Under the pieces are notes generated by a model. It ran no database searches. It was not told the DNA's origin and saw nothing but the letters and a program-made list of their open reading frames with translations. A program made the position numbers and the translations under genes. A DNA stretch of 64,000 nucleotides from Saccostrea echinata (Eukaryota), in assembly GCF_033153115.1 (NCBI RefSeq), contig NW_026889782.1, forward strand, positions 24,304,001 to 24,368,000. Direction: 5' to 3'. Below are positions 36,198 to 52,469 of the stretch, in pieces (within the stretch, counting starts at the first letter, position 1; each line of letters opens with the position of its first letter).

Positions 36198-39100
36198 TGT
36201 AAGAAGCTGCTGCCGTGTGGCGTAACGGAAAAAGTCAGTTTCAACTAGACTACATTTATTAGAACATGTAAACAAGCATGGCGTAAATTGTAAGCATAAA
36301 TTGAACATCGAACCCGATCAAATATTGTTACATAACCTTTTCCTTAGTTAGAATAGTATGGACAATGAATAAATTTATATTATGCTTAAAAGTGACTAGA
36401 ATCAAAACATCTGTACTGCTTTACTGAACTGACTAGCAAAAAATAACAATATGACTAGACACTGGACTATGAGTATTATATGCAAACTTGTAAAATGCAA
36501 CATCGATGAAATGAATTAAGCGTTCCTAGCTACACTAAACAAAATTATCTTGGCATCTACTCAAGTTAAATGTCTATCAACAAATCATGATCTGACATAG
36601 TCATTGTATTTAACCGGCGGTTTCACTTCACGTCCAGAACGGGTAACTGTGTTCTTAGGGTCAGTTACTGGCTTTGGAACATCGGGTGCCACTTCCTTGG
36701 CCTCATTTGTCTCACACGGAAGATCACACGGAATGTCTCTTGACACCGGCAATTCATTTGATTTACGCAAATGTTTTCTGTTTCTCGTATAGTTTGCTCC
36801 GGCCTCGGTCGTTACCTTGTATGATCTCCTTTCCGGTATTGCTTCCGTAACCGTTCCTTTCTCCCATGGTCTATTAGGGGTTTTGACTCGGACAGTCTCT
36901 CCAACTGATAGTTGCGATAATGGGTGTGCAGATCTGTTGTAATATTCTGCTTGTTTTTGTTTGGCATTGTCGATCTTCTCTTTCTCAAATGGTGCATCTT
37001 TCGGCTGTAATAACTTTCCTTTCGTGGGTAGTAGTGTTTTTGTTCTCCTTCCCATAAGTCTCATGACTGGACTGGTTCCCACATGCTGTGTAGGTGTGTT
37101 CCTGAAATCCAACAATGCAAGGTAAGGATCAGATTTTGCATGTTTTGCTTTCTTTAGAATTTGTTTGGCAACTTTCACTGCTTGTTCGGCTTTCCCATTG
37201 CTTTGTGGGTAGTGTGGTGAAGATGTTACGTGTTGGAATTCCCACAGTTGGGCAAACTTAGCAAATTCTTCGGAGGCAAATTGAGGACCGTTGTCCGACA
37301 CACACAGGTCTGGTATTCCATGTCTCGCGAATTGTGCTCGTAGTCGTTTGATGATCTCATGGGATGTCATTCTGTCCAAGGCATCAATCTCGAAGAAGTT
37401 TGAGAAGTAATCAGTTACTATCAAGTAGTTACGTTGGTCGAAAGTGAAGATGTCAAGTCCAAGCTTTGCCCAGGGACGTGGTGGTACCTCGTGATGTTGT
37501 AGAGGTTCTTTTCCTTGGTTGTTGTCAAAAGTGCGGCATGTTTCACACTTTTGTATGAAGTCCTTAACTTCAGCGTTCATTTGTGGCCAGTACACAGATT
37601 CTCTGGCTCGTCGTAGGCATCCCTCGATTCCAAGTTGTGATGAATGTATCCTTGTCAGCATATCCTTGCGTAGTGCTTGTGGAATAACTGCTCTGTCTCC
37701 TTTAAAAATGACTCCATTTTGGATAGACAGCTCATCTCTGATCTCAAAGTAGGGAACTATGAGTTCTGGAACTAAGGTTTTGCAGTCTGGCCACCCATTT
37801 CTGATGGATGCGCCTAAACTTTGCAGGGTATTATCCTTTGCAGTTTCGTCCTGAATGTCTTTCAAACGGTTTGGTGCAATTGGCAGGAATTGTAGCATAT
37901 TTATCGCTTCTACTACTGACTCCGCCTTTGATGGTTTCTCATTGGGCAGATACGCACGACTTAAGGTATCCGCTAGCTCCATGTTCTTTCCAGGACGGTA
38001 CTTAAGATTTACTTCATACTTTTGCATCCTGAGCAGCATGCTCTGGAGACGCTTTGGCGCTTTGTAAAGAGGCTTATTCACAATCATCTCCAAAGGTTTG
38101 TGATCTGATTGGACAGATACTGGTCTCCCAAATGTATAAACATTGAAACGTTCAAGCCCGAATATCACTGCTAGAAGCTCCTTTTCTATTTGTGCGTAGC
38201 GGGTTTCAGTTTCGGTCAGGGCACGGCTGGCAAAGGCAATCGGCTTGTCCTCTTGCAACAAAGCTGCTCCAAGTCCTTTCTCCGAGGCGTCGCATTGTAG
38301 TATTAGTGCCTTTTCTGGATTGAAGTACTGTAACACAGGATCTGCTGTGACTAGATTTTTCACTTGTTTTACAGCTTCGTCATGTTGTGGGGTCCAGTGC
38401 CATTCAACATCTTTCTGTGTTAACTTGCGCAGCGGCTCGCAGATGTCACTAAGCTTTGGTAAGAATTTTGCTAAATATGTCACAAATCCAATAAATCGTC
38501 GGACTCCTGCAACGTCAGTTGGATTTGGCATATCCAGGACTGCTTTGACCTTTTCGGGGTCTGCCTTGAGTCCTTTATTAGTGATCGTGTGGCCTATGAA
38601 TTTTACTTCGGACTGTCGAAATTTCATCTTGTCCTTATTGAGTTTGAGCTGCTGTTCTCTACATCTCATCATGAGTCTGACAAAGTTTCTGTCATGATCC
38701 TCTTGCGCTTCTGCTTCTGTGTTTCCTTCTCCAAACACCAGAATGTCATCATGTATACTCTTGACTCCAGGCAGTCCTTCCAGTGCTTGATGCTGGCGAC
38801 GCTGAAATTCCTCTGGCGCAGTGTTGATACCGAATGGCATGCGGAGCCAGCGGAATCTGCCAAACGGACTGTTAAAAGTAGTCATAAGAGAGCTTTCGTA
38901 GTCCAGACGAACATGCCAAAAGCCATCTTTGGCATCTAGGACGCTGAAGCATTTGGCATCTGACAAATCTGGCAAGATGTCCTCTATTGTAGGCATAGGG
39001 AAGTGCGCTCGCTGCAGTCCCTTGTTCAGGTCTTGGGGGTCTATGCAGACTCTGAGTTTTCCACTTGGCTTCCTTGCTACAACCAAGCTGGAGACCCAAG

Positions 39101-40844
39101 GTGTAGGCTCAGTAACTTTGGCTAGAATTTCCAGTTGTACGAGTCTCTCCAGTTCCTTTTCTAAGTCATTCTTGATTGCGAGTGGAACTTTCCGTGGAGC
39201 ATGAACAACTGGTTTGACACTCGGATCAATCTGGAGGCTGTAATCTCCTTTCAGGTGTCCTAGGCCAGTAAACACATCATGGTATTCTCTGCAAATGTTC
39301 TCCTTTGTCAATGGTTGTTTTCTCACATTGATTTCAAGGATGTTTTCGTTCTTGACCGTGATCAATTTCAAGGCTTGTGAAGCTTTGGAACCAAGTATTG
39401 GTTGACACGAGCCATCCAGTATGACGAAATCCGCTTTGTATTTTTCTCCGTTCTTAGGATTTTTGAATTTTAGGTTGCACTTGCCCAGAGGTTTGATTGT
39501 CGTGTTGTTATACATGCTGAGTATTTGGTCTGTCTCTGTGATTGCATTGTTATCTGTCAAATACTTTCTTGGGAGTATGTTGCAGGTCGCCCCACTGTCC
39601 ACTTGAAATTTCACGTACTGTCCGTTGACCGACAAGGTGGCAAATACCTTGTTTACAGAAGCTTGGTTAATTGCATTTACTGACTCGCTGTTGTTTTTGA
39701 GATCTACACTATATATAGAAAAGTAATCATCAGAGTCTGATTCGGCACTCTCTTGGATTTGATGGACTGTTGACTTGGCGGAATTGCAGACATTTTCAAA
39801 GTGATGAAGTTTGCGACACTTCCTGCACTGATGGCCATAGGCTTTGCAATTTCGCTTTCCTTTGGCGTGGCGACTTCCACAGTACTTGCATTGACTAGGT
39901 TCTTGTCTCGCTTGTACCTGTTGCTGTGGTTTCTGGGACTTTTGTGGCTGTTTCTTGAAGCTCTTCTTGTGCGAGTTGACTGCATGCACAGATATTCCTG
40001 CAGCCTGTGGTTGAATTTCCTTGTTCTGCTCCTTGGAAACTTCAGTGGCTCTACACACATGAATGCATTTCTCCAAGTCTAAATCGGCCACACGTAGAAG
40101 CCTTTCTCGCAGCCCAGAATCACTTACGCCACAAACAATTCGGTCTCTTATCATTGAGTCTTTGAGAGTTCCAAAATTACAAGTGTCAGCCAAAATTCTA
40201 ACTTCTGCTAAGAATTTGTCAAATGTGTCACCTGTCTGCTGGTTTCGACTGTAGAATTTGTACCTCTCGACTGTTTCGTTTTTCTTGGGATCACAGTGTT
40301 TGTCAAATTCTGCGAGGATGAGTTTTACAGTAATATTTTTCTCTTCCATATTCACTTTGTTCCCATGCTCATCGGTAGTTTGAAACTGCATCGTGCTATG
40401 GATTTCTCTCCCCTTGCGTCCCAGAAGATACAGCAAGAGTTTCACCTTTTGTGGCTCTGGTTTTTTTCTCCATGCTGATATCTATGTAGAGTAACACCTC
40501 TTCCTTCCATTTCTTCCAGGTCTGAGAAAGATTTTTAGCATCGAAATCCATTGTTTCGGGCGGATGAAGTACGTTTTCCATTGTTGTCGATTTTGGCGCG
40601 CTCTCGAACAATAACAAAGGAAAATGTCAATTTGTCTCTAATTGTGGCTGGTTACACAATGTTTTCCATCCCCGTACTCACTAATAATGGTCCGACACTT
40701 CTGACACCATGTAAGAAGCTGCTGCCGTGTGGCGTAACGGAAAAAGTCAGTTTCAACTAGACTACATTTATTAGAACATGTAAACAAGCATGGCGTAAAT
40801 TGTAAGCATAAATTGAACATCGAACCCGATCAAATATTGTTACA
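36198..40844 (-). mobile_element. Full-length Ty3/Gypsy LTR retrotransposon (Mag-like)
   Basis: Identical 135-bp LTRs (36198-36332 and 40710-40844); 5-bp TSD GATGT; PBS TGGTGTCAGAAGTG (tRNA-Leu type, 40696-40709); PPT at ~36335-36345. Confidence 0.97.
36585..40581 (-). CDS. gag-pol: Gag-Pol polyprotein (two Zn knuckles, PR, RT, RNase H, IN) with a 1-nt frameshift at the T7 run 40461-40467
   Basis: CKYCGSRH/CRKCRKLHH, VDSGA, IHDDILV, CDAS, SDNGPQF, QSNGKAE. The upstream frame MENVLHPPETMDFD...WKKW joins if one A is removed. Confidence 0.95.
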
Positions 40845-41422: not shown

Positions 41423-43087
41423 TATTTCTCTGGTCAGCAGTCGTGTTAACACAATCCTTAAAGGGCTATATTGTTCCTTCCATTTATCCCTCAATGGCTA
41501 TTGGGCAATATAATCAAGCTTCCTAGCAAAACTGATTTTGAATAAAGTCTAGAAAATTCTAAGAAGCTTATATCTGTAAAAACTTTTCATAAAAAGACGA
41601 CACGACACACAGTCTAATAAATAACTGCAATGACTGTGATCTTGGACCGATAAAAAATCGTATCAGAGAAAGGAAAATCACTGTCCTCAGTCACACCTTT
41701 AGTTATTAATCATAAGCCAACAAAACAATATCATCTCCTAACCCCCCCCCCCCCCCCCATTTCCAGTTAAATCTTTTCTAATTCTTTAATCTTGGTGTTA
41801 GCCCTTCCTAAAACATTGTTTTTTAAACCTAAGGTTTTGTAAAATCCTCATATCAGTTTGATCTTTTATACAGGCGTTTTCTTTTTTAAATTACCTGAAT
41901 ATGTAGATTACCGGAGTTTTCTATTACTGTTCAATCTTGCGTAATGACATAAAAAAGAGGCATAACATGGGGACTACGAAATGATTTTGTTTCTAAAATA
42001 TGAATTTAAATCCATTTATGTTATTTACATACATTTATGTATAAAAAAAAAGTTATAATTGTGATATCACTGTGATTTTTGATATCTCACATAGAACGCC
42101 ATAAAAATTAATTTATGCTGTAAGGAACAATAATACGGAAACGATAACTCCGTGATTTAATTTTGCATTTATGTTTAAATATTATCCCAAGATAAGTCAT
42201 ACTGAGATTATTCGATCCTCAAAATTGACTAGCTAAAGTGTACGCAAATCTCGAACTCAAAGGACGGCGTAGTTAAATGTCGGGGTTGACCTACAATTTC
42301 TGCCACCTGGGGCCCGTTTTACAAAAGAACTTACGACTAAGACCAAAAACTTTTATTGATTACAAAATTTTGCAAAATTAATTATTCCGTTTGAAATTGC
42401 TAGCATAAAAATAGCTTGTAAAATTACGTGCTTAATTGTCTGGTAGACAATTAAGCACGTAAGGAAAAATGGCGGAGGTACCTACACCACTCTATACAGA
42501 GCGGCTGAGTCACTTTTGTCTACATTCTAAAAACCCACACCAATGTGTTTATCGGTACTGTCGTGTTACCAAGTTAACATTGGTTACTATAACTCACAAT
42601 AGAGTAAAAAAGGCTAGCGTCTTACCTTAAACAGGCGACAGCATACATGGTTAATAAATATGGGATGAGTCCGGGCATACATGAACAATAACAACACACA
42701 AACAATACGTAGACAGGAAAACAGGTAAACGTGTTCTTAGTTAGACATCAGGACTATGACTGCAGCTTCAGTATGCCTAATACGAAGCATCACATGACAT
42801 GCCCAGTAAGCGGGAAGACCAGAGTCACAGGTCATGTACACAGAGAGTTGGGAAAATACAATAAGATATAAAACCTAATTTTACTACATTCCTCCCCATT
42901 CTGTGTTAAAGGACTTGATTATAGCACAATATATATATATATGATTCAGGGAATCAAACAGTGTTAACAGGTCGAAACAATATTCATACCTATGGTAACA
43001 ATGAGTAATTATAAACATTCCACAAAAATTTGGTCGGAAAATATCTAGACCTAAAATTCTGCAGAAACCGTCATTTGTTTGGAACAG

Positions 43088-44823
43088 CTAACAGTTTTTA
43101 ACATTATACAGTCGACGACTATTCTGGACGTGGCGCAGTGGTTAGAGCGTCTGCTCTAGAGTCGCGGCGTAAGGAGTGGGACGTGGAGACCGGTCCTTCG
43201 GATGAGACGGTATAACCCGAGGTCCCGTGTCGCAGTAGGTGCTGGCACGAAAAAGATCCCTCACTGCTCAATGGCCGTAAGTTCCGAGTATAGGACAAAA
43301 TTTGCAGCTCCCCACCGGCAAGTGGTGGCGTCTCCATATGAGTGAAAAATTCTCGAGAGGGACGTTAAACAACATACAAACAAACAAAAACTATCCTGGA
43401 CTGTCTGTTTCAGAAGTTGCTGTATGGGAACTTGTAGCTTTGCTGCAACGAGGCTAGCAACATCACCAATGAATCCTGGAGTGTTGGTATCTCCACCTCC
43501 TGGTTTCATATCTGTAGAATCTGTTTCCAGAAGAATTCGGTTCGAAGGAACGAACTGAAGGCCTGCAGTTTGGTCAGCACTTCAGTTCTCAACATCGCCA
43601 GTGAAACCAAAACGAACATTGGAGTAGCTGTTCATCCATTCCTGGACCAACTCCGTGTCTCCCATAAAGCAGTGGACAAGAATAGGCTGATCGTACTCGC
43701 AAAACCTCTGTAGAATCTGATGCAACATGCGTGCACATCCATGCCAATCCTGTTTGAAGGGGTTCCTCTCAGATGTAAAATCAACACCTTGTCTTTACGT
43801 ACAAGGGAGAATGCTTTCCGAAAAATATCTTCCTGGTGTCTCCACAGCTTTACAGGAACCGTACGATCCAAACCAATTTTCCCTAAACCATCAATACATG
43901 GCGAATCCAGTAAATTCTTCTTTTGGTGATATCTCTCCTCTGTGAGTTCGTCAGCATGTTTTGGATGTACGCCCAGGGCTATACCAAAGGGTCCACCAGG
44001 ATGCAAGTATTCTGGATGTGTTGAGGGCTCACTGTAAATAATCACACCTCGTACAAGTGTCACATGTAGATTAGGCTGACGCTCACTCTGATTGGAGTAG
44101 GATAGAATATCGTCCAGGGACTTTCCAAAGGAAAAGGGGCGTCTCCAGATTCGAGAACAGGTCCTGTCCAGATGGAAATGACTATCAAAGGCCTCGTCTG
44201 CAGTTGGACTGGTTTCATACACTTATCGCATGATGTTAACATCAGAATGGTTAAAAGTATGGTACGGGTTGACGTGGGATCTCTGCGTCGGAACCGTAGC
44301 TGACATCATCAACTGTAAACTCATCCTCTGTAGACGAATCCACGGTAGGGACCTAAACATCCTCTGTGTTTGGAGCAGATGATGTGTCGACTGTAACACG
44401 TCCATGTGCACGAAATTCTTTGGGCTGCAAAAGTGACAATAGGGCAACCAAACATCTCCAGTGAAAGAGAGCAGCTGCGGAATTGATTGGTGACAGCTTG
44501 AATCCCTCAGAGGGTTCTGTCCGTCCCTAATAAGAAAGAGTCTCTTCATGAACGTAACCGTGTCCGGATGTACAACTGCATTTGAAGGAATCATCTTTGA
44601 GGAGTTCAAGTAGTCGACCGCTGCAAATAACTCTGCATGATGTCCTAATGCACTGAGACGTTCCATCGTTGAGAAGAGCCAGATCGTACACTAGTCTCTT
44701 TGGATCGACTAAACTTCTCGATGATGTACTTCTCCTCACAAAGTCGACATAATGTTCACCTCGTTCCTGACGAATAGTTCTATTTGACCTCTCTGTTTTC
44801 CATGATCTCTTATAAGATGCCAT
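43088..44823 (-). pseudogene. tatD: TatD-family nuclease with a long N-terminal extension; stops, frameshifts and a SINE insertion
   Basis: AFDSHFHLDR, IALGVHPKHA, GLGKIGLDRT, QEDIFR, LILHLRG, NVRFGFTG, RILLETDS, NTPGFIGDVA, QNSRRLY. Confidence 0.92.
43130..43390 (+). mobile_element. tRNA-derived SINE family A with the B box deleted, inserted in the TatD ORF
   Basis: 11-bp TSD CTAT(T/C)CTGGAC, A box TGGCGCAGTGG and (CAAA)n tail. Confidence 0.92.
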
Positions 44824-44847
44824 TGTATCAATAATAATAATGATACC

Positions 44848-44849
<2 letters not shown>

Positions 44850-44906
<57 letters not shown>
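44850..44906. repeat. (TA)n microsatellite (another lies at ~7637-7688)
   Basis: Directly visible dinucleotide run. Confidence 0.95.
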
Positions 44907-44913
<7 letters not shown>

Positions 44914-45499
44914 ACAAATAATAAGGGACTATATAGACGACAGACAAAATATTGAAAATAATTAAATTGAAATGACCCAGGTCTATATGGTCCACTTCTT
45001 CATCAACTGAACAAAAAATCATAAGAACATAAGTATACTGAAACTTATCAGTAGTGCAAATGTCAGGCATATAACATTCTACTGATGTGATTAGAACCAT
45101 ATGTTATTTAGTAGTTAAATATTTAAACTCTTTAATATGAACAATTTACACCAGCAGTCTCTATGTATTTTATTTAGGACAATTTACATAATTGTTTCTG
45201 ATTATATTTATTCAACAACGTAATCATGACATACTTAAACTGCATGGTGTTCTAAGCACAGCATAGGGTAAAACATTAGTAATATTATTTATCTATTAAA
45301 ATTTATCTTGGTATTATTAAGGCAAGAATTTAGATTTGACAATTTAGATTGCACTTAAACACCTATGCTGTACTGCTATAACCACCAGAATAAGAATTCA
45401 TGGTAATACGCCCTTGAACAGTTTTATTGATCAGTTAACATAATTAACATAATCTGATTGGGAATTCTGAAGTCAGGAATTTCAATGAATTATGGCTTA

Positions 45500-47290
45500 G
45501 TGATCCTTCTCTTCCAAGGGCCACATTCATCTTCATGATGGACTTCATGTCAGAGTTTACTGAAACTCTGTTACTTTCTTCTACATCTCCGACTCTGTGC
45601 ATGATGTACTTGCACTCTGCACTCTACGCTAAACCAATCCTTTCTGGTAAGGTCTGCTCTGGTGATTCTGGTGATTCTGATTCCTGTGTTGGCAGAGCTT
45701 AAGTCGTCTGTCATATCACTGTCTGCTTCTGTTTTACGCCATAAGCTGCAGAGAATGAACCTCCTCGACTTTCAGTGGCACCAACAAAACCAAACCAGTC
45801 TCTGTTGAACATGTCCATTTCTTTGGCATCAACAGCACATATTTCAAGTTCCTCTTGGTCATTGGTGATATTGTTCCTTAGTTCTTTCTGGTCAATGGTT
45901 GTACAGTCCTTTATTACCTCTGCATATGCGAGAGTTTCTGGGTTTGGCTCTGGTAACATCTCTTTGGACTTATATCTTGTGTACGTATGTGATGTAAGAC
46001 TCTTTTCATTGAGACTAATTGGGTCCCCTGAAGATTCTTAATGCTCATCACTTCCCCTGTTCTTGTCAAAGTGATGAACCACATCTTCTTGTTGAAAGTA
46101 TGGTGATATTATGACAGAGAGTTTATCCAGGCCGTCAGGCATACTGTAAGACCTAATTAGAGGGTTCTTGTTCCTCTCTTGTCTTTTAATTTGCTCCAAT
46201 TGTGTCTGGACTGGATGAGGAGTAGACATCTTTGTGGAGCTGGGTTTTGGTTCATTATTGTACAGGCCTTCCACCTTCTTTGGTTTTTGTAAAGATGTAG
46301 ATTGTTTATCGCCATCCTCTCCAATGGGACAACCATTATCATCTCCTCTTCAGAATATATTACTCAAGTGTGATTTGAGTTCCTGCTTGCCAGTGCCAGA
46401 TGACTTTCTGTTTCACTGAAGTAATCTCCATTGATTCATCTATATCTGGTGAAGGGATATTGATGTCTGATGTCAATCTCTTTGGTTGAGGACACAAGTT
46501 CTGCTTTTTTACCACATTCCCAGAGAAATCATCAGCTGTCTTAGTCAACTCACTTCTGCAGACAAAACTGACATCTTCACTGGCATTCCATTTCATTCTC
46601 AAAGACGTGAGGTGGGTAGCTGGAACCTCCATGACAGAACTGCCATCAGAACACCTGGAAGCTGAGTCAGAGGAGTCTAAACTGGATTTAGATGTTTCAA
46701 ATGGATTGTCATATTGGCCTCTGACTGGGAGATGAGAGATACTAGTACTTACATTCAAGCTTCCACTGGGTAGCTGCACATTGTTCGGCATTTGACCCTT
46801 AGGTGGAGCCAAGTGGATAATATCCCGTTCACCTGACGGTAATGAACCACCCAGTGATCGGAATGTTCCCATAACTTGTTCAGGAGTCATGGATGCCTGC
46901 ATACTCTGAACACTTAACGATACCGAACCGCCTAGTGTTTGAGTATACATTCCTCCCCATACAGCAAAATGGCTGTTGCCCTCCATGGAAACATAAGTCA
47001 GGTTCAGTCTTCATTGCCATTGATGGTAAAACAGTTGGCTGATTTAGACCGGCTTGACCATGTAACCCACATTGAGGAAATGGTGGCATGCATTGGGGAT
47101 ACTGTGGGCAAGGCTGGTAAGGTCCGAAGCTGTACATACCATAAGGCACCATGGGATGCACATATGGTGGTATCATTCCCCACTGATTTGGATATCCACT
47201 ACTGGGTGGATAAGGGGACGTATGTGCCTGAGGGTATGACACGCTACTACATAAAGTGTAAATGCCTGGTTGCATTGCAGTCGTATTTGT
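45500..47290 (-). pseudogene. Degraded long low-complexity ORF (Pro/Tyr/Gly-rich, then Ser-rich) inside the TatD LTR element
   Basis: Overlapping minus-strand ORFs 46880-47275, 46360-46986, 46038-46274 and 45711-45959 with raised GC; no gag or pol motif recognised. Confidence 0.55.
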
Positions 47291-47296
47291 TTAAAG

Positions 47297-48368
47297 TGTA
47301 ACGATCGCTCCCCCCTTTTTCATGTGTTATAATGTGTTGAATGTCAAGCATCGTTATGTTATTAATTACACGTTTGTTGATCGTTTACGTGTACATACAT
47401 AGTTGTAAAGTTGTACGGTAATTTATGATTACCTCATGATTACCTTAATTGTCGTGTGAACGATGTATTTTAGCATCTTTCAGCACACGTGTTTTCCGTA
47501 ACTTCTGCCGCCGCCATACTTTGTTTACTTGTGTATTTTCCCATGATGCTTCACGGTGTATTGATCTATTTTTACCGTAGTTATTTTGGCGGAAGATTTG
47601 ATTGTAGATTCTGTTTAATTAAATGTTAAATGTGCTTTTAAAGTGTAAACTTATATTTTAATAATTTATTTACGTATTGTAATAATTTTATATACGATGT
47701 ACGAGAGCGAGATTTCATTACGGGATGATAATTATGTATGATTGGCTAATTATTAATTACGGGATGGAATTATTAATAATGATTGGTTATTATTGCGGGT
47801 TTTGGAAGTTCTATAAATACACAGACGCTGAGTATCGGGTGCTCTCTCGTTTCCTTTGCGTCCTAAAGAAAGGTCGCCAGATTTATTTGTCCAGATTAAG
47901 GTGTGTACTATTTCAGTATATATATATGTGACTGAAGTACATATGTAGTGCTAGGCTTAATTAATATTACTAGTCATTGTGCTAGTTTCATTTATTTTTA
48001 CTAGTTAAGAACTAGTTATTTCTATTCTCTTTAAGAGTTAGGAAATATTTCTGCTGTGTGCTAGTAGTTGAACTAGTAGCGGGAATATTTATTTGTAAAT
48101 TTAGTCATTTATAGGGAGCCTTTCCGTTTTAGTTTGGTCGGGGGAATTTATATATGAATGTTATACTGGAAATAGTGCCAGTTTATATCCGTCCGTATCA
48201 GTAGTTGTACTGATTTTTGTCTTTTGTCCCAAGGGTTGAGACTTGTCAATTTTACACACTGTTACTCATTTTCGCTGTTGAACTACCTCAATAAATTATA
48301 AACTTTATTTAGCGACTTGGTTTTTATTCCTAGCATTTGCGGGAGTGTTTGACATCCGAAGCGTTACA
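47297..48368 (+). mobile_element. Solo LTR (~1.07 kb)
   Basis: TGTAACG...CGTTACA termini; TATAAATA at ~47812; AATAAA at ~48290; flanks AAAG / ATAG (imperfect TSD). Confidence 0.7.
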
Positions 48369-48754
48369 ATAGAAAAACACTGATTTTATCTCTCTATGAT
48401 ATTGCTATAGTTAAGTTTTAACTTTATTAGTAAAAGCCTGAACTAATCATAGCTAACACACAAACCAGTTAAAGACAATATCTAACAATGTTCTTTACTT
48501 TGAGTAAAGTCAGAACACTGTAAAGAAAAAAAAAATTAAAGATTTTCTTTCAAACTGTACTTCACTCAATTGTTCTTTACTTTATTTAAAGCCAGAACAA
48601 CAAGTGTAGAAATAAATTGCAAAAAATGAAAGAGAAAAAAAATTCCAGTGCTCTTTCAAATGTTCAAGAACACTTGCTTGAAAATGTCTATAGATAGTCA
48701 AAAATAAAAAAAATATTTTTCTCATATGCAATGCCAACATGAAAAAGAAAGAAA

Positions 48755-49640
48755 CCAGAAGTCTCTGATGAGACTGTAGCTCTACTGGTCTGTACATATA
48801 ACAAAGAAAAAGTAGCACTTGGATTTGAAACTTTGCAACACGCAGCAATAAATAGAATAATGTATCTTAATGTAGTGTACTTGTGCGCCAAGTAATATTG
48901 AAATCAGACCAAAACTAAAGGAGGAGTAACGTTTTAAAGGATTTTCACAGAAATTTCTATTTTTAGTAACCATGGCAACACTGTTCATTGAAATCAAAAG
49001 CCGATGCACTAAATTATGTATCTTAGTGTAGTCTACTTGTGTGCCAAGTTATATTGAAATCAGACCAAAACTGAAGGAGGAGTAGTGTTTTAAAGGATTT
49101 TCACAGAAATTTCTATTTTTAGTAACCATGGCAACATCGTTCACCAAAATCAAAAACTGATGCACTAAATAATGTATCTTAGTGTAGTCTACTAATATGC
49201 CACGTTATGTTGAAATCAGACCAAAACTGTAGGAGGAGTAGCGTTTTAAAGGATTTTCACAGAAATTTCTATTTTTAGTAACCATGGCAACACCGTTCAT
49301 CGAAATCAAAAACAGATGCACTGAATTAGGTATCTTAGTGCAGTCTACTTATTTGCTAAGTTATACTGAAATCAGACTAAAACTGTAGGAGGAGTAGCGT
49401 TTTAAAGGAATTCACAGAAATGTCTATTTTTAGTAACCATGGCACCACCATTCATCGAAATCAAAAACCGATGCACTAAATGTATCTTAGTGTAGTCTAC
49501 TTGTGTGCCACGTTATGTTGAAATCAAACCAAAACTGTAGGAGGAGTAGCGTTTTGAAAAATTGTTTACAGACAGACGGACGGACTACGGACACCTTACT
49601 ATCGCATAAGCTCTTCTGGTCTCTGACCAGTAGAGCTAAT
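48755..49640 (-). mobile_element. Helentron with a 156-bp satellite array
   Basis: subTIR AGCTCTACTGGTC at both ends; (GACG/GACA)n; monomers at 48901, 49057, 49213, 49369 and 49521; palindrome GTCTC-tgat-GAGAC. Confidence 0.9.
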
Positions 49641-49737
49641 AAAAATCAATTGAAATTCTGAATTTAAAACAAAATTAATTTACAATTTTTTTTTTTTTTT
49701 TGTAATACTATATTCCTGTCTACTAGAAAACAATTTA

Positions 49738-50858
49738 TTAGGGCCCCGCAAGGATTTGCGGGTGCCCTATAGTAATCACTCTGTCTGTCTGTCCGTCTGT
49801 CATTCTTCCGTCCACAAATTTTCTGTTTTTTTCTAATAACATTTTTTTAGGGTTGACCAATTAAGTTCAAATTTGGTATGTTGGTTGAATAGGCAGTAAG
49901 ACACATGTTGATGCTAAGTTTGATTCTCTATGTCATCCGGTTTGGAGCTGGGGTGGTGGGATATATTCCGTAACTTTATATAAGAGTGAATGGACAAAGA
50001 GAGATAACTGCTGAGAATGTTCCTATTGTAAACTATGAAAGGCTGCAATAAGTCTCTTGGGATTAATTAACTTTCCTCTTGAAGAAAATCCAAAGCATTT
50101 ATCTTTATCTGCCACATTGAGATTAATTAACACCTCTGTGTGCAAATGAAGTTTGTTTTGAAGTTAAGGTCAATTCTGAATGATGTTTACATTCTCTGAA
50201 ATGTGGATTTAAATAATGTTCATACTTTATTTTGTTAAAATACACAATGAGTTATGATTTTATTGAATTCTAGAAACAAGATATAGATAAAGATACCGTT
50301 TTTATTATTATTTTCTTTTTTTCTGCCTTATGTAAATTCAAGAATACTAATTATTTTAACAGGTATTCAGATAATAACCTCATTCTATCATTGCTGAAAA
50401 AGTTCTTATTGTAAACTTAGAAGAAAAGGTTGAGAGAGCAGTATAATTAATCCCGTGGGTTTGATTATCTTGCTGGTTTGCAGAATATTTTAGAGGGTTA
50501 TCTTTCTGTCACTTTAAGATTAATTAACACCTTTGTCTGCAACTGATATTTGTTTTGAAGTTAGGTCAAGCCTGGGTGATATCTGCATTCACTGAAGGCT
50601 GGCATTTTAGAAAACACGTCCTTCATTCATTTTTAAATATACATTTAATTGAGTTATTATAGATAGGATGTTTTATACTGCCTTATGTAAATACAAGGAT
50701 ACTATTTACAGATTGTTGGATATTTAGCAGTTGCTGTTGCTTATTCTTTATATATTTTGAAATTTTTTGGAATCAGGTAAAATTCACATCCCCTAATCTG
50801 CACCCTTTCTATTTCTAACCCTCGTTGGGGACCTTGCTGACTGGTCAGATTTCTAGTT
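49738..50858 (+). mobile_element. Helentron/HINE
   Basis: 5' hairpin, (TCTG/TCCG)n, two ~390-bp internal repeats, and 3' CTGAC-tg-GTCAG plus TTCTAGTT. Confidence 0.8.
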
Positions 50859-52469
50859 TATTTTGCAATGTTGTAACTAGTGCTTTAATAAATAAATTGG
50901 AATGATAAAGGAACAGTTACCAATATACACAAGTAATAATATGTTCCAGTTTATTTATGAAAATTTCAATTGTAAAAAATTCAGAAAATTGCTTAGATGT
51001 TGTAGGACTAACAGTATTAAATACTGTGAGCAGTAATAGAGCAAATAAACTTTATAAAATAAACTTTACTTAATGTATATTAGTTTAATAAAGTTTTATT
51101 TCTCTTTGAAAATCTTCCAGAAAGCAAAACCGGATATTTAACAGACAATTACATTAAATATTGCGCCAAAACGTGAAAAAATGGCGTCCGACAAGACGAG
51201 TGACAAGAAAACAAAATGTCGAAAAAAATTCAAAAGCTATTCTAGAGAACAAATTAACAAAATTATCGCATCAACATTTATAAAAACGCCTGAAAACGAT
51301 AATATATACAAAAAATATACAAAATATCTATCAAATATATAAAAAATGCAGATGATATCACCCACGTGTTCATTGAAAACACGAGTGACAAGGAAAAATA
51401 TTAATTTGACACAAAAAAGTACGTAGGCGTGCAAAAAATATCACACACAACGTTTATTGAAATGCATGTGTAAGAAAATGTTGAAATATAGCAAAAATAT
51501 GACAAATTGTCGCACACAACGTTTTCTGAAAACTCACGTGTACGAAAATACGAAGTTTCAAACCTATGCGAAAGTACACAACGTTTATTTAAACGCTCGT
51601 GTACAAATATGTAATTGCTAAAATATAGCACACAACGTTTAGTAAAACGCACGTGTACTAGTTTCAAAGAAAAACAGTAGTTTATTTACAAACATTTCAC
51701 GACAAAAGGTTAAATAGACATGGCCGAATTGTTGGAACCTCGTGCTTCAACGTTTAAACAACGCCCGTGCACGACGAGTTTCCGTAAAAAGTGTCACAAA
51801 ATGACCGTGAATAATTTAACAGAATTTGGTAAATACCGAGTTGACCCGTGATGCCAAAATTGTAGTCTACAGCAATCGTACTAACGTTAAATTAACACCC
51901 GTACGACAAATTAATCTACTCAGTAATTTGCAGAAAAGTAGGACTATCCTACCCGCGACGCCAATTGTCGTGTAACCGAGTTAATATTGGTTACTATAAC
52001 TCACAATAGAGTAAAAAAGGCTGGCGCCTTACCGTAAACAGGCGACAGCATACATGGTAAATAGACATGGGATGAGTCCAGGCATACATCAACAATAACA
52101 ACACACAAACAATACGTAGACAGGAAAACGGGTAAACGTGTTCTAAGTTAGACATCAGGACCAGGACTAAAGCTTCAGTACGCCTAATACGGAGCATCAC
52201 GTGGCATGCCCAGTATGCGGGTAGACCAGGGTCAGAGGTCATGTACACAGAGAGTTGGGAGAATACAATAACATGTAAAACCTAATTTTACTACAGTACC
52301 ATTAGCAATTAATAGTAATCTATTATGAATGTAAATTTGTTCATCTTCAAACAAAGTTATATTGTGGAAAAATATTAGGAAAAAAAAATTTCATCAGTAT
52401 AGAAATATATACTTTGATTATTTACGTAATTAGCAGTCTGAAATGAAATGGATATAATCTGAATCAGCC

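Follow-up and report, generated by a model that had tools for sequence, protein, structure and literature searches.

A TATDN2-related TatD nuclease as optional third-gene cargo of Ty3/Gypsy retrotransposons in the oyster Saccostrea echinata

Retrotransposon families can reportedly keep a captured host protein domain functional, as with the MBD domain of arthropod Copia elements; that example differs from the present one in being Copia and a DNA-binding domain, apparently not a separate enzyme open reading frame (ORF). The element analysed here is a Ty3/Gypsy retrotransposon on the minus strand of a 64,000-nucleotide stretch of the oyster Saccostrea echinata (contig NW_026889782.1, positions 24,304,001 to 24,368,000; hereafter the window), and its family carries a TatD nuclease gene as a third ORF (ORF3). 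Enzyme third ORFs in long terminal repeat (LTR) elements have already been described in bdelloid rotifers, where the Juno and Vesta retrotransposons encode a 3'-5' exonuclease of the DEDDy type or a GDSL/SGNH esterase (PMC5408684). Both groups are Gypsy-like with a non-env enzyme ORF3 after pol; the catalytic residues are intact, and the ORF3 type varies by family, with an SGNH or SGNH-like type in both. Unlike Juno and Vesta as described there, the oyster elements encode a TatD barrel of the TATDN2 clade instead of a DEDDy domain, a constant zinc-finger-plus-helical (ZH) module, and also an MBLAC1-like version; TatD is absent from the main text of that paper (PMC5408684).

Two cellular proteins are also relevant. 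TATDN2, both in the oyster (P0219) and in human as reported (PMC10711561), resembles ORF3: both are long, mostly disordered proteins that end in a Class II (HxH) TatD domain with the same catalytic motifs. The host gene differs in being spliced, in lacking the ZH module and in reading DSHCHID at the first motif; the element genes are intronless and multicopy and conserve DSHFHLD there. The bacterial YcfH (PDB 1yix) is the best solved structure by sequence (E 1e-16) and by fold (template modelling score, TM, 0.80 on the target); it is a single-domain cellular gene outside the clade of element and TATDN2 proteins. The literature searched gave no published description of TatD or MBLAC1 cargo, or of the ZH module, in LTR elements; supplements and the Repbase, Dfam and GyDB databases were outside its scope, and the oyster Gypsy entries of Repbase may already note the ORF. 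TatD is likewise absent from the main text of a mollusc Gypsy survey (PMC6238403).

TatD is very probably a functional cargo of the whole lineage. Homologues were found at no fewer than 33 loci by a search with the TatD piece of the window and at 67 or more by Pfam family, and the flanking DNA was examined for most of them. The full layout consists of gag, a pol with protease, reverse transcriptase (RT), RNase H and integrase in that order, a separate ORF3 ending in TatD, a polypurine tract (PPT) and the LTR; six or more families of this genome share it despite deep divergence. The pol order was seen with Pfam and with tblastn on C88a, C13, C33b and other copies. Pfam recognized a CCHC gag and each of these pol domains, and within part of the clade pol ends in a PHD finger. 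The LTR pair with TG...CA ends, the short target duplication, the tRNA primer-binding site (PBS) and the PPT are those of Ty3/Gypsy. Two sets of stretches were examined for an integrase upstream of TatD and on its strand. The first set had one in 9 of its 27 stretches, the remainder being pol-less copies, fragments and LTR-less genes; the second had one at 14 of its 19 loci, and also contains one copy with pol deleted between its LTRs and four loci without a retroelement domain. LTR pairs enclose the TatD ORF in 17 of 37 stretches, with 86-100% identity and mostly 4-bp duplications. The initial annotation had suggested, from the window alone, that a lineage of retroelements took up a TatD module; the genome-wide homologues do sit in LTR elements, and are not LTR-less recent retrocopies of a host gene.

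The same plan extends beyond this genome. An 11,691-bp contig in a bacterial genome bin (L213, titled as a Sedimenticola metagenome-assembled genome, MAG) holds a complete element with LTR, PBS, gag, a 1425-codon pol with PHD, ORF3 with TatD, PPT and LTR. The ORF3 on this contig bears the annotation of a bacterial TatD hydrolase, and several similar MAG entries are among the database matches; the contig would be animal DNA within a bacterial bin. Homologous proteins are annotated in the molluscs Magallana, Ostrea, Pinctada, Pecten, Argopecten, Mizuhopecten, Mytilus, Dreissena and Haliotis, and in the sea urchins Strongylocentrotus, Diadema and Lytechinus. Database proteins that are identical or nearly so carry a Saccostrea annotation, in keeping with a rock oyster as host. 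One Dreissena protein cluster has 47 members, which at the protein level fits a multicopy element. No relatives of P0045 were found among viral contigs. The gag of several families starts with a helix-hairpin-helix DNA-binding motif (L153:1-1821 (+), L156:8121-9644 (-) and L213:1650-3962 (+)), which Pfam recognizes as HHH_3 at E 1e-6 to 2e-5 in the first two. A TatD fragment at L039:4259-9854 stands beside ORFs matching PC4, a chromodomain-integrase and a double-jelly-roll protein, typical of a Polinton/Maverick-like element.

The protein was analysed on an open 639-codon ORF3 copy (P0001), in which a disordered N-terminus is followed by a compact module (ZH, residues 153-300), a linker and TatD (372-638). 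The TatD_DNase (PF01026) match of this copy reached E 2e-38 (132.6 bits). Its AlphaFold2 model was confident over both domains, with predicted local distance difference test scores (pLDDT) mostly >90 over the barrel; the best Foldseek match of the barrel was E. coli YcfH (E 1.5e-14), and the structures of TatD, TATDN1 and TATDN3 were matched as well. The model thus predicts with high confidence the triosephosphate isomerase (TIM) barrel fold of the amidohydrolases. The Class II ligands (HxH, then Glu, His, His, Glu and Asp) are present in P0001, the window copy having Lys for Glu at one of them, and of the 188 database relatives whose domain is complete, 166 keep all seven metal or catalytic residues. 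By motif, residues E593, E705 and D707 of human TATDN2 correspond to E470, E588 and D590 of P0001. TatD was the sole enzyme domain in the Pfam scan of the TatD-type ORF3, and no DEDDy (DnaQ-like) domain was found there.

In the ZH module one Cys and two His are invariant and a second Cys is nearly so; a helical bundle comes after them. It is present in 180 of 215 family proteins and absent from the ten host TATDN2-type proteins compared (best E 0.1). The module was modelled with pLDDT 93.6; no Foldseek match at E 0.001 and no Pfam match were obtained, the closest structural comparison was weak (Z 4.0, root-mean-square deviation 3.6, 70 aligned residues), and the top score in the ESM Atlas (0.86) fell in unnamed clusters. 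The predicted module is therefore described as lacking a clear structural match, which does not amount to a new fold. The initial annotation had placed the gene in the 'env' position. This holds for the location between integrase and 3' LTR, as seen in sister copies and as in the third sense ORF of env-bearing Gypsy elements (errantiviruses; PMC5408684); the product itself is not env by its sequence. A simple hydropathy scan found a segment of transmembrane strength in none of six ORF3 proteins (top 19-residue Kyte-Doolittle means 0.97-1.54), and an enzyme fold is found instead of the errantivirus envelope.

RT and TatD trees were compared for 15 copies with both domains. They agreed on six families and on one deep split (Mantel rho 0.61, p 0.0005), although out-of-frame tails in some rows lengthen single branches. 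Identity of TatD between families is 20-40% and the motifs are nonetheless kept. The ratio of nonsynonymous to synonymous substitution rates (dN/dS) of TatD between subfamilies, estimated roughly, by plain counting after local filtering on identity, was 0.09 (C13-window), 0.09 (C13-C88a), 0.12 (C13-C9b) and 0.15 (C13-C117). This was one of the checks proposed initially, and the low ratios show purifying selection at the sequence level. Ratios among close TatD copies were 0.3-0.9, and RT behaved alike in most such pairs; near-neutral values among close copies are expected from decay after insertion.

The latter ratios, together with the broken state of the window copy and many others, might suggest that TatD is a passenger, a recent host retrocopy carried without benefit. 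This explanation is very improbable. Post-insertion decay would account for the close-copy ratios, which RT shares; identity to host TATDN2 is 30%; families with 20-40% identity in TatD retain the motifs; the ratios between subfamilies are low; and the domain is fused to a ZH module that host TATDN2 lacks.

The window copy spans 9,737 bp. Its features are as follows.

52296..52299, no strand: target-site duplication GTAC, outer side of the 5' LTR, from sequence
51966..52295, minus: 5' LTR, 330 bp, 91.5% identical to the 3' LTR
51946..51963, minus: PBS, tRNA-Ser(AGA), 17/18 bases, by tRNA comparison
48407..51945, minus: 5' leader carrying later insertions; pieces align with sister copies C9a, C88a and C9c at 76-94%
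48856..49563, no strand: inserted array of 156-bp tandem repeats, missing from sister copies
47297..48368, no strand: inserted solo-LTR-like repeat of another family, TGT...ACA, ~1070 bp, by repeat search
46360..47290, minus: gag remnant, Pro/Gln-rich N-terminal part in two frames (tblastx against the C13 copy, E 1e-41; probe gagN, E 0.001)
45212..45424, minus: short protease-region remnant, by comparison with sister copies
43088..44823, minus: ORF3, broken (N-terminal piece, deletion, frame changes, two stops, short interspersed element)
44395..44654, minus: surviving half of the ZH module; the zinc finger itself is deleted
43378..44204, minus: Class II (HxH) TatD domain, spread over two main frames, with Lys replacing the first catalytic Glu
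43130..43389, plus: short interspersed element (SINE) with a tRNA-like head, read from sequence, and an (AAAC)n tail; 12-bp duplication, 11/12
42889..42903, minus: PPT, a purine run adjoining the 3' LTR
42559..42888, minus: 3' LTR, 330 bp, paired with the 5' LTR
42555..42558, no strand: target-site duplication GTAC, outer side of the 3' LTR

The boundaries first described for this element, namely paired 330-bp LTRs, a GTAC duplication, a tRNA-Ser-like PBS and a PPT, were all recovered. The LTRs end in TGT...ACA and diverge by a Kimura two-parameter distance of 0.09; the PBS differs by one base from the 3' terminus of tRNA-Ser(AGA), as encoded in the same genome, with CCA added, and an equal match occurred in none of 100 shuffles. 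The TatD_DNase hidden Markov model (HMM) matched three consecutive frames at E 4e-10 (40 bits, above the gathering cut-off of 27 bits), E 0.024 and E 1.4e-5. The claim of an intronless ORF with ordered TatD motifs stands for the motif order and for the Glu-to-Lys change in GxIGLD. It does not stand for a single ORF: compared with a 755-residue full-length relative, ~260 codons are missing, several frames and two in-frame stops are present, an internal deletion lies at 44654/44655, and the 260-bp SINE interrupts the last codons. The distance of ~190 bp from the ORF end to the PPT applies only to those last codons beyond the SINE.

No RT, RNase H or integrase was found in the window copy by domain search and by alignment with sister copies; only the gag and protease remnants are left. 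The position after the integrase is thus invisible in this copy and is shown by its sisters. The copy is a dead, pol-less, non-autonomous derivative. The solo-LTR-like repeat and the 156-bp array within it are later insertions; the former has at least 12 other near-full-length copies in the genome at 85-96% identity and is flanked by AAAG and ATAG. The closest relatives of the LTRs and ORF3 are C9a and C88a (C88a is 87-93% identical in both regions); whereas the interior at 45212-47295 is closest to the pol-less copies C88b, C9b, C46a and C46b (68-89%). These differing affinities suggest that the window copy may be recombinant.

Two other candidate features of this copy were rejected. One splice-like junction common to the pol-less copies is unsupported, as the upstream breakpoints of C9a, C9c and the window copy differ; and a 14-base match resembling a second PPT at 46949-46962, inside the gag remnant, is taken as chance, since the C13 copy differs there. 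At 45000-45030 on the minus strand, upstream of ORF3, is a pyrimidine-rich tract ending in AG that is common to the window copy, C9a, C88a and C88b, and similar tracts precede ORF3 in other families; by sequence the tract is a possible splice acceptor. Some 2 kb from the studied element, at 36585-40481 on the minus strand, lies another Gypsy element, with a single open gag-pol frame of 1298 codons.

The ORF3 cargo is modular and optional. In the RT sister of the window family (supported at 95/95 in one tree and 88/89 in another), the ZH module is joined instead to a domain with the metallo-beta-lactamase fold, whose match to human MBLAC1 has E 1.5e-30. Loci of this type number about ten, and these lie at a matching distance from RT matches of the family or have 526-527-codon frames. 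The other ORF3 types found are listed together with it.

L196:1791-3366 (-) and L195:2-1351 (+): MBLAC1-like ORF3, ZH fused to a metallo-beta-lactamase-fold domain, THGHLDH motif intact
L194:2260-3231 (-) and L203:1460-2110 (-): SGNH/GDSL-like ORF3 with a ZH-like zinc-finger start; Pfam E 0.009 for one, no match for the other
L168:2454-4151 (-), also L167 and L175: young family with LTRs 96-99% identical and a degenerate TatD that has lost most metal ligands

ORF3 may also be missing. Subfamilies with pol 95-96% identical to that of the degenerate-TatD family have no ORF3, and another ORF3-less family has several near-identical copies with open frames of 2357 codons. Among 20 further RT loci, which were chosen for having no listed TatD nearby (several of them close kin) and so give no frequency estimate, none had TatD within 6.5 kb. 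In a 26-row RT tree, from which 9 near-duplicate or short rows of 35 were omitted, the TatD, MBLAC1-like, SGNH-like, degenerate and ORF3-less families formed one clade (100/100) against seven other Gypsy families. A separate RT clade of TatD-bearing elements was rejected, since on a 34-row tree the label needs four changes. Both branches of the clade's main split include TatD, which was therefore likely the ancestral cargo, later swapped, inactivated or lost. More distant Gypsy families (L204-L209) have a third sense ORF after the integrase with one or two C2H2-like zinc fingers, in which no enzyme domain was found.

Some copies appear to have left the elements. P0002 (contig C77; L050:4468-7800 (+)) is an LTR-less, intronless gene of 1111 codons with two ZH modules and a TatD domain without several ligands. 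An Ostrea edulis protein is 53% identical to it over the whole length, and the two form a short-branch pair in the TatD tree; P0002 has likely been domesticated in oysters. C20 (L165:2489-4399 (-)) is an LTR-less open frame of 637 codons related to the degenerate-TatD family, and is a possible second domestication.

The origin of the domain was addressed with an LG+G4 tree of 60 TatD rows: 33 element-type, 7 TATDN2, 2 TATDN3-like and 18 drawn at random from at least 80 outgroup loci, these being metagenome matches to the ORF3 alignment at 26-35% identity that were treated as bacterial TatD. Besides the spliced TATDN2, the host has a second spliced gene, which we take to be TATDN1-like from its motifs, and an intronless tandem pair, presumably TATDN3-like on the same basis; the pair (L151:1501-2319 (-) and L151:8670-9515 (-)) lies outside any element. 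Element TatDs and TATDN2 formed one clade (100/100), apart from the TATDN3-like and bacterial rows. P0001 is 30% identical to host TATDN2 and falls on a separate branch, so the element domain is by sequence an old capture and not a recent retrocopy. An origin from TATDN2 is probable. The host gene is spliced and ORF3 is not, which points to the catalytic domain of TATDN2 having been captured once, long ago, by way of an RNA intermediate. Since TATDN2 has been reported from most eukaryotic groups, with prokaryotic relatives (PMC10085689), capture from host to element is the simpler direction.

This placement bears on function. TatD proteins had been introduced initially as exonucleases and AP (abasic-site) endonucleases; the domain assignment is retained, but the nearest host clade is TATDN2, an RNase, and not the AP-endonuclease paralogues. 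Human TATDN2 is reported to cleave hairpin RNA and the RNA strand of R-loops, with little DNase, very weak AP-endonuclease and minimal activity on plain RNA:DNA duplexes, and to bind poorly without its N-terminal region (PMC10711561). MBLAC1 is reported as an endoribonuclease (PMC6303110). Two independent captures of RNA nucleases on one adaptor therefore suggest an RNA substrate, and the loss of ORF3 in thriving sister subfamilies suggests that its job is accessory. We thus favour, with a probability of roughly 0.5, the reading that ORF3 is an optional nuclear RNase whose targets, at the loci of the element itself, are structured RNA or R-loops. The protein would be translated apart from gag-pol and, to judge from basic clusters before the zinc finger, would enter the nucleus; the ZH module would supply substrate binding in place of the N-terminal region of TATDN2; the substrate would be RNA rather than DNA; and clearing R-loops or silencing-related RNA at element loci would benefit the element. 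By analogy with the cellular enzymes, RNase activity itself is slightly favoured over its absence; action at element loci or transcripts is a more tentative part of the proposal.

Several results weigh against this reading. The SGNH-like partner (weak, E 0.009) is no nuclease, so RNase activity is not common to all ORF3 types; the degenerate-TatD family still has dN/dS of 0.09-0.29, so catalysis is not always what is selected. These two versions suggest that what counts may be binding by the ZH module more than cleavage. Identity to TATDN2 is 30%, low enough for a possible change of substrate, and the nearest solved structure by sequence and fold is YcfH, which is reported to have AP-endonuclease activity (PMC10085689). 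The dS between subfamilies is near saturation (2.3-3.1), and two further TatD pairs were not estimable. Support for the element-only TatD clade is 92/76 in a tree that lacks TATDN1 and vertebrate TATDN2 and samples TATDN2 from spiralians only; and a topology with TATDN2 inside the element TatDs is not rejected by an approximately unbiased (AU) test (p 0.37, for a group picked after the tree was seen). That compatibility, and the one ORF3 domestication seen in oysters, would suit descent of animal TATDN2 from a domesticated element ORF3. Such a reverse direction is very unlikely, because the best tree places TATDN2 as sister and not nested, TATDN2 has the wide eukaryotic distribution and prokaryotic relatives already cited (PMC10085689), and the gene is spliced here and lacks the ZH module.

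The apparent importance of the ZH module also fits a different role, the chief alternative, in which ORF3 is a counter-defence protein: ZH would bind a host silencing factor or chromatin, and the enzyme would be secondary, maybe a decoy of host TATDN2. Genes engaged in conflict are often gained, swapped and lost, as ORF3 is between sister families; moreover, ZH is constant across the TatD, MBLAC1-like and SGNH-like versions, and a catalytically degenerate TatD is kept under purifying selection. This role is nevertheless rather unlikely, as most relatives keep every catalytic residue (166/188), structural comparison of the ZH fold gave nothing clear (best Z 4.0), and ORF3 has no known partner.

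An alternative site of action is the particle, where the nuclease might assist reverse transcription or integration: it could trim the 3' ends of cDNA or rid it of primers or abasic sites. TatD enzymes are reported as 3' exonucleases and AP endonucleases (PMC10085689), and an auxiliary replication role has been proposed for the DEDDy exonuclease ORF3 of the bdelloid LTR elements (PMC5408684). Also in favour, the ZH module or ORF3 is in frame with gag/pol in two copies (L201 and C33k). Against it, ORF3 is normally a separate frame, pol already contains RNase H, human TATDN2 is minimally active on plain RNA:DNA duplexes (PMC10711561), and the subfamilies with pol 95-96% identical to a TatD-bearing family, like the 2357-codon family, dispense with ORF3 altogether. 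An in-particle role is therefore improbable, and the ORF3-less sister subfamilies argue in particular against any essential part in cDNA processing, the first function that the initial annotation had suggested.

The anatomy and history of the TatD-bearing elements are well supported. These results add TatD and MBLAC1-like nucleases to the short list of third-gene enzymes of LTR retrotransposons, and a single clade is seen to re-arm one adaptor module with different host enzymes. A broader scenario, which we regard as speculative and rather doubtful, is that an old Gypsy clade of molluscs and sea urchins carries a plug-in effector gene, in which a constant ZH targeting module, with a fold not yet described, is combined with independently captured host RNA nucleases (TATDN2 and MBLAC1) that would destroy R-loops or silencing RNAs at element loci; oysters would then have domesticated a double-module copy that has lost catalysis, which might serve as an antidote. 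Many bivalve and sea-urchin genes named 'TATDN2-like', 'YcfH-like' or 'uncharacterized', and some 'TatD hydrolases' of bacterial bins with an animal host as source, are probably transposon genes, as was seen for this genome and L213 and is extrapolated elsewhere. The active, dead, swapped and lost versions provide natural variants for asking what an accessory gene does for a retrotransposon.

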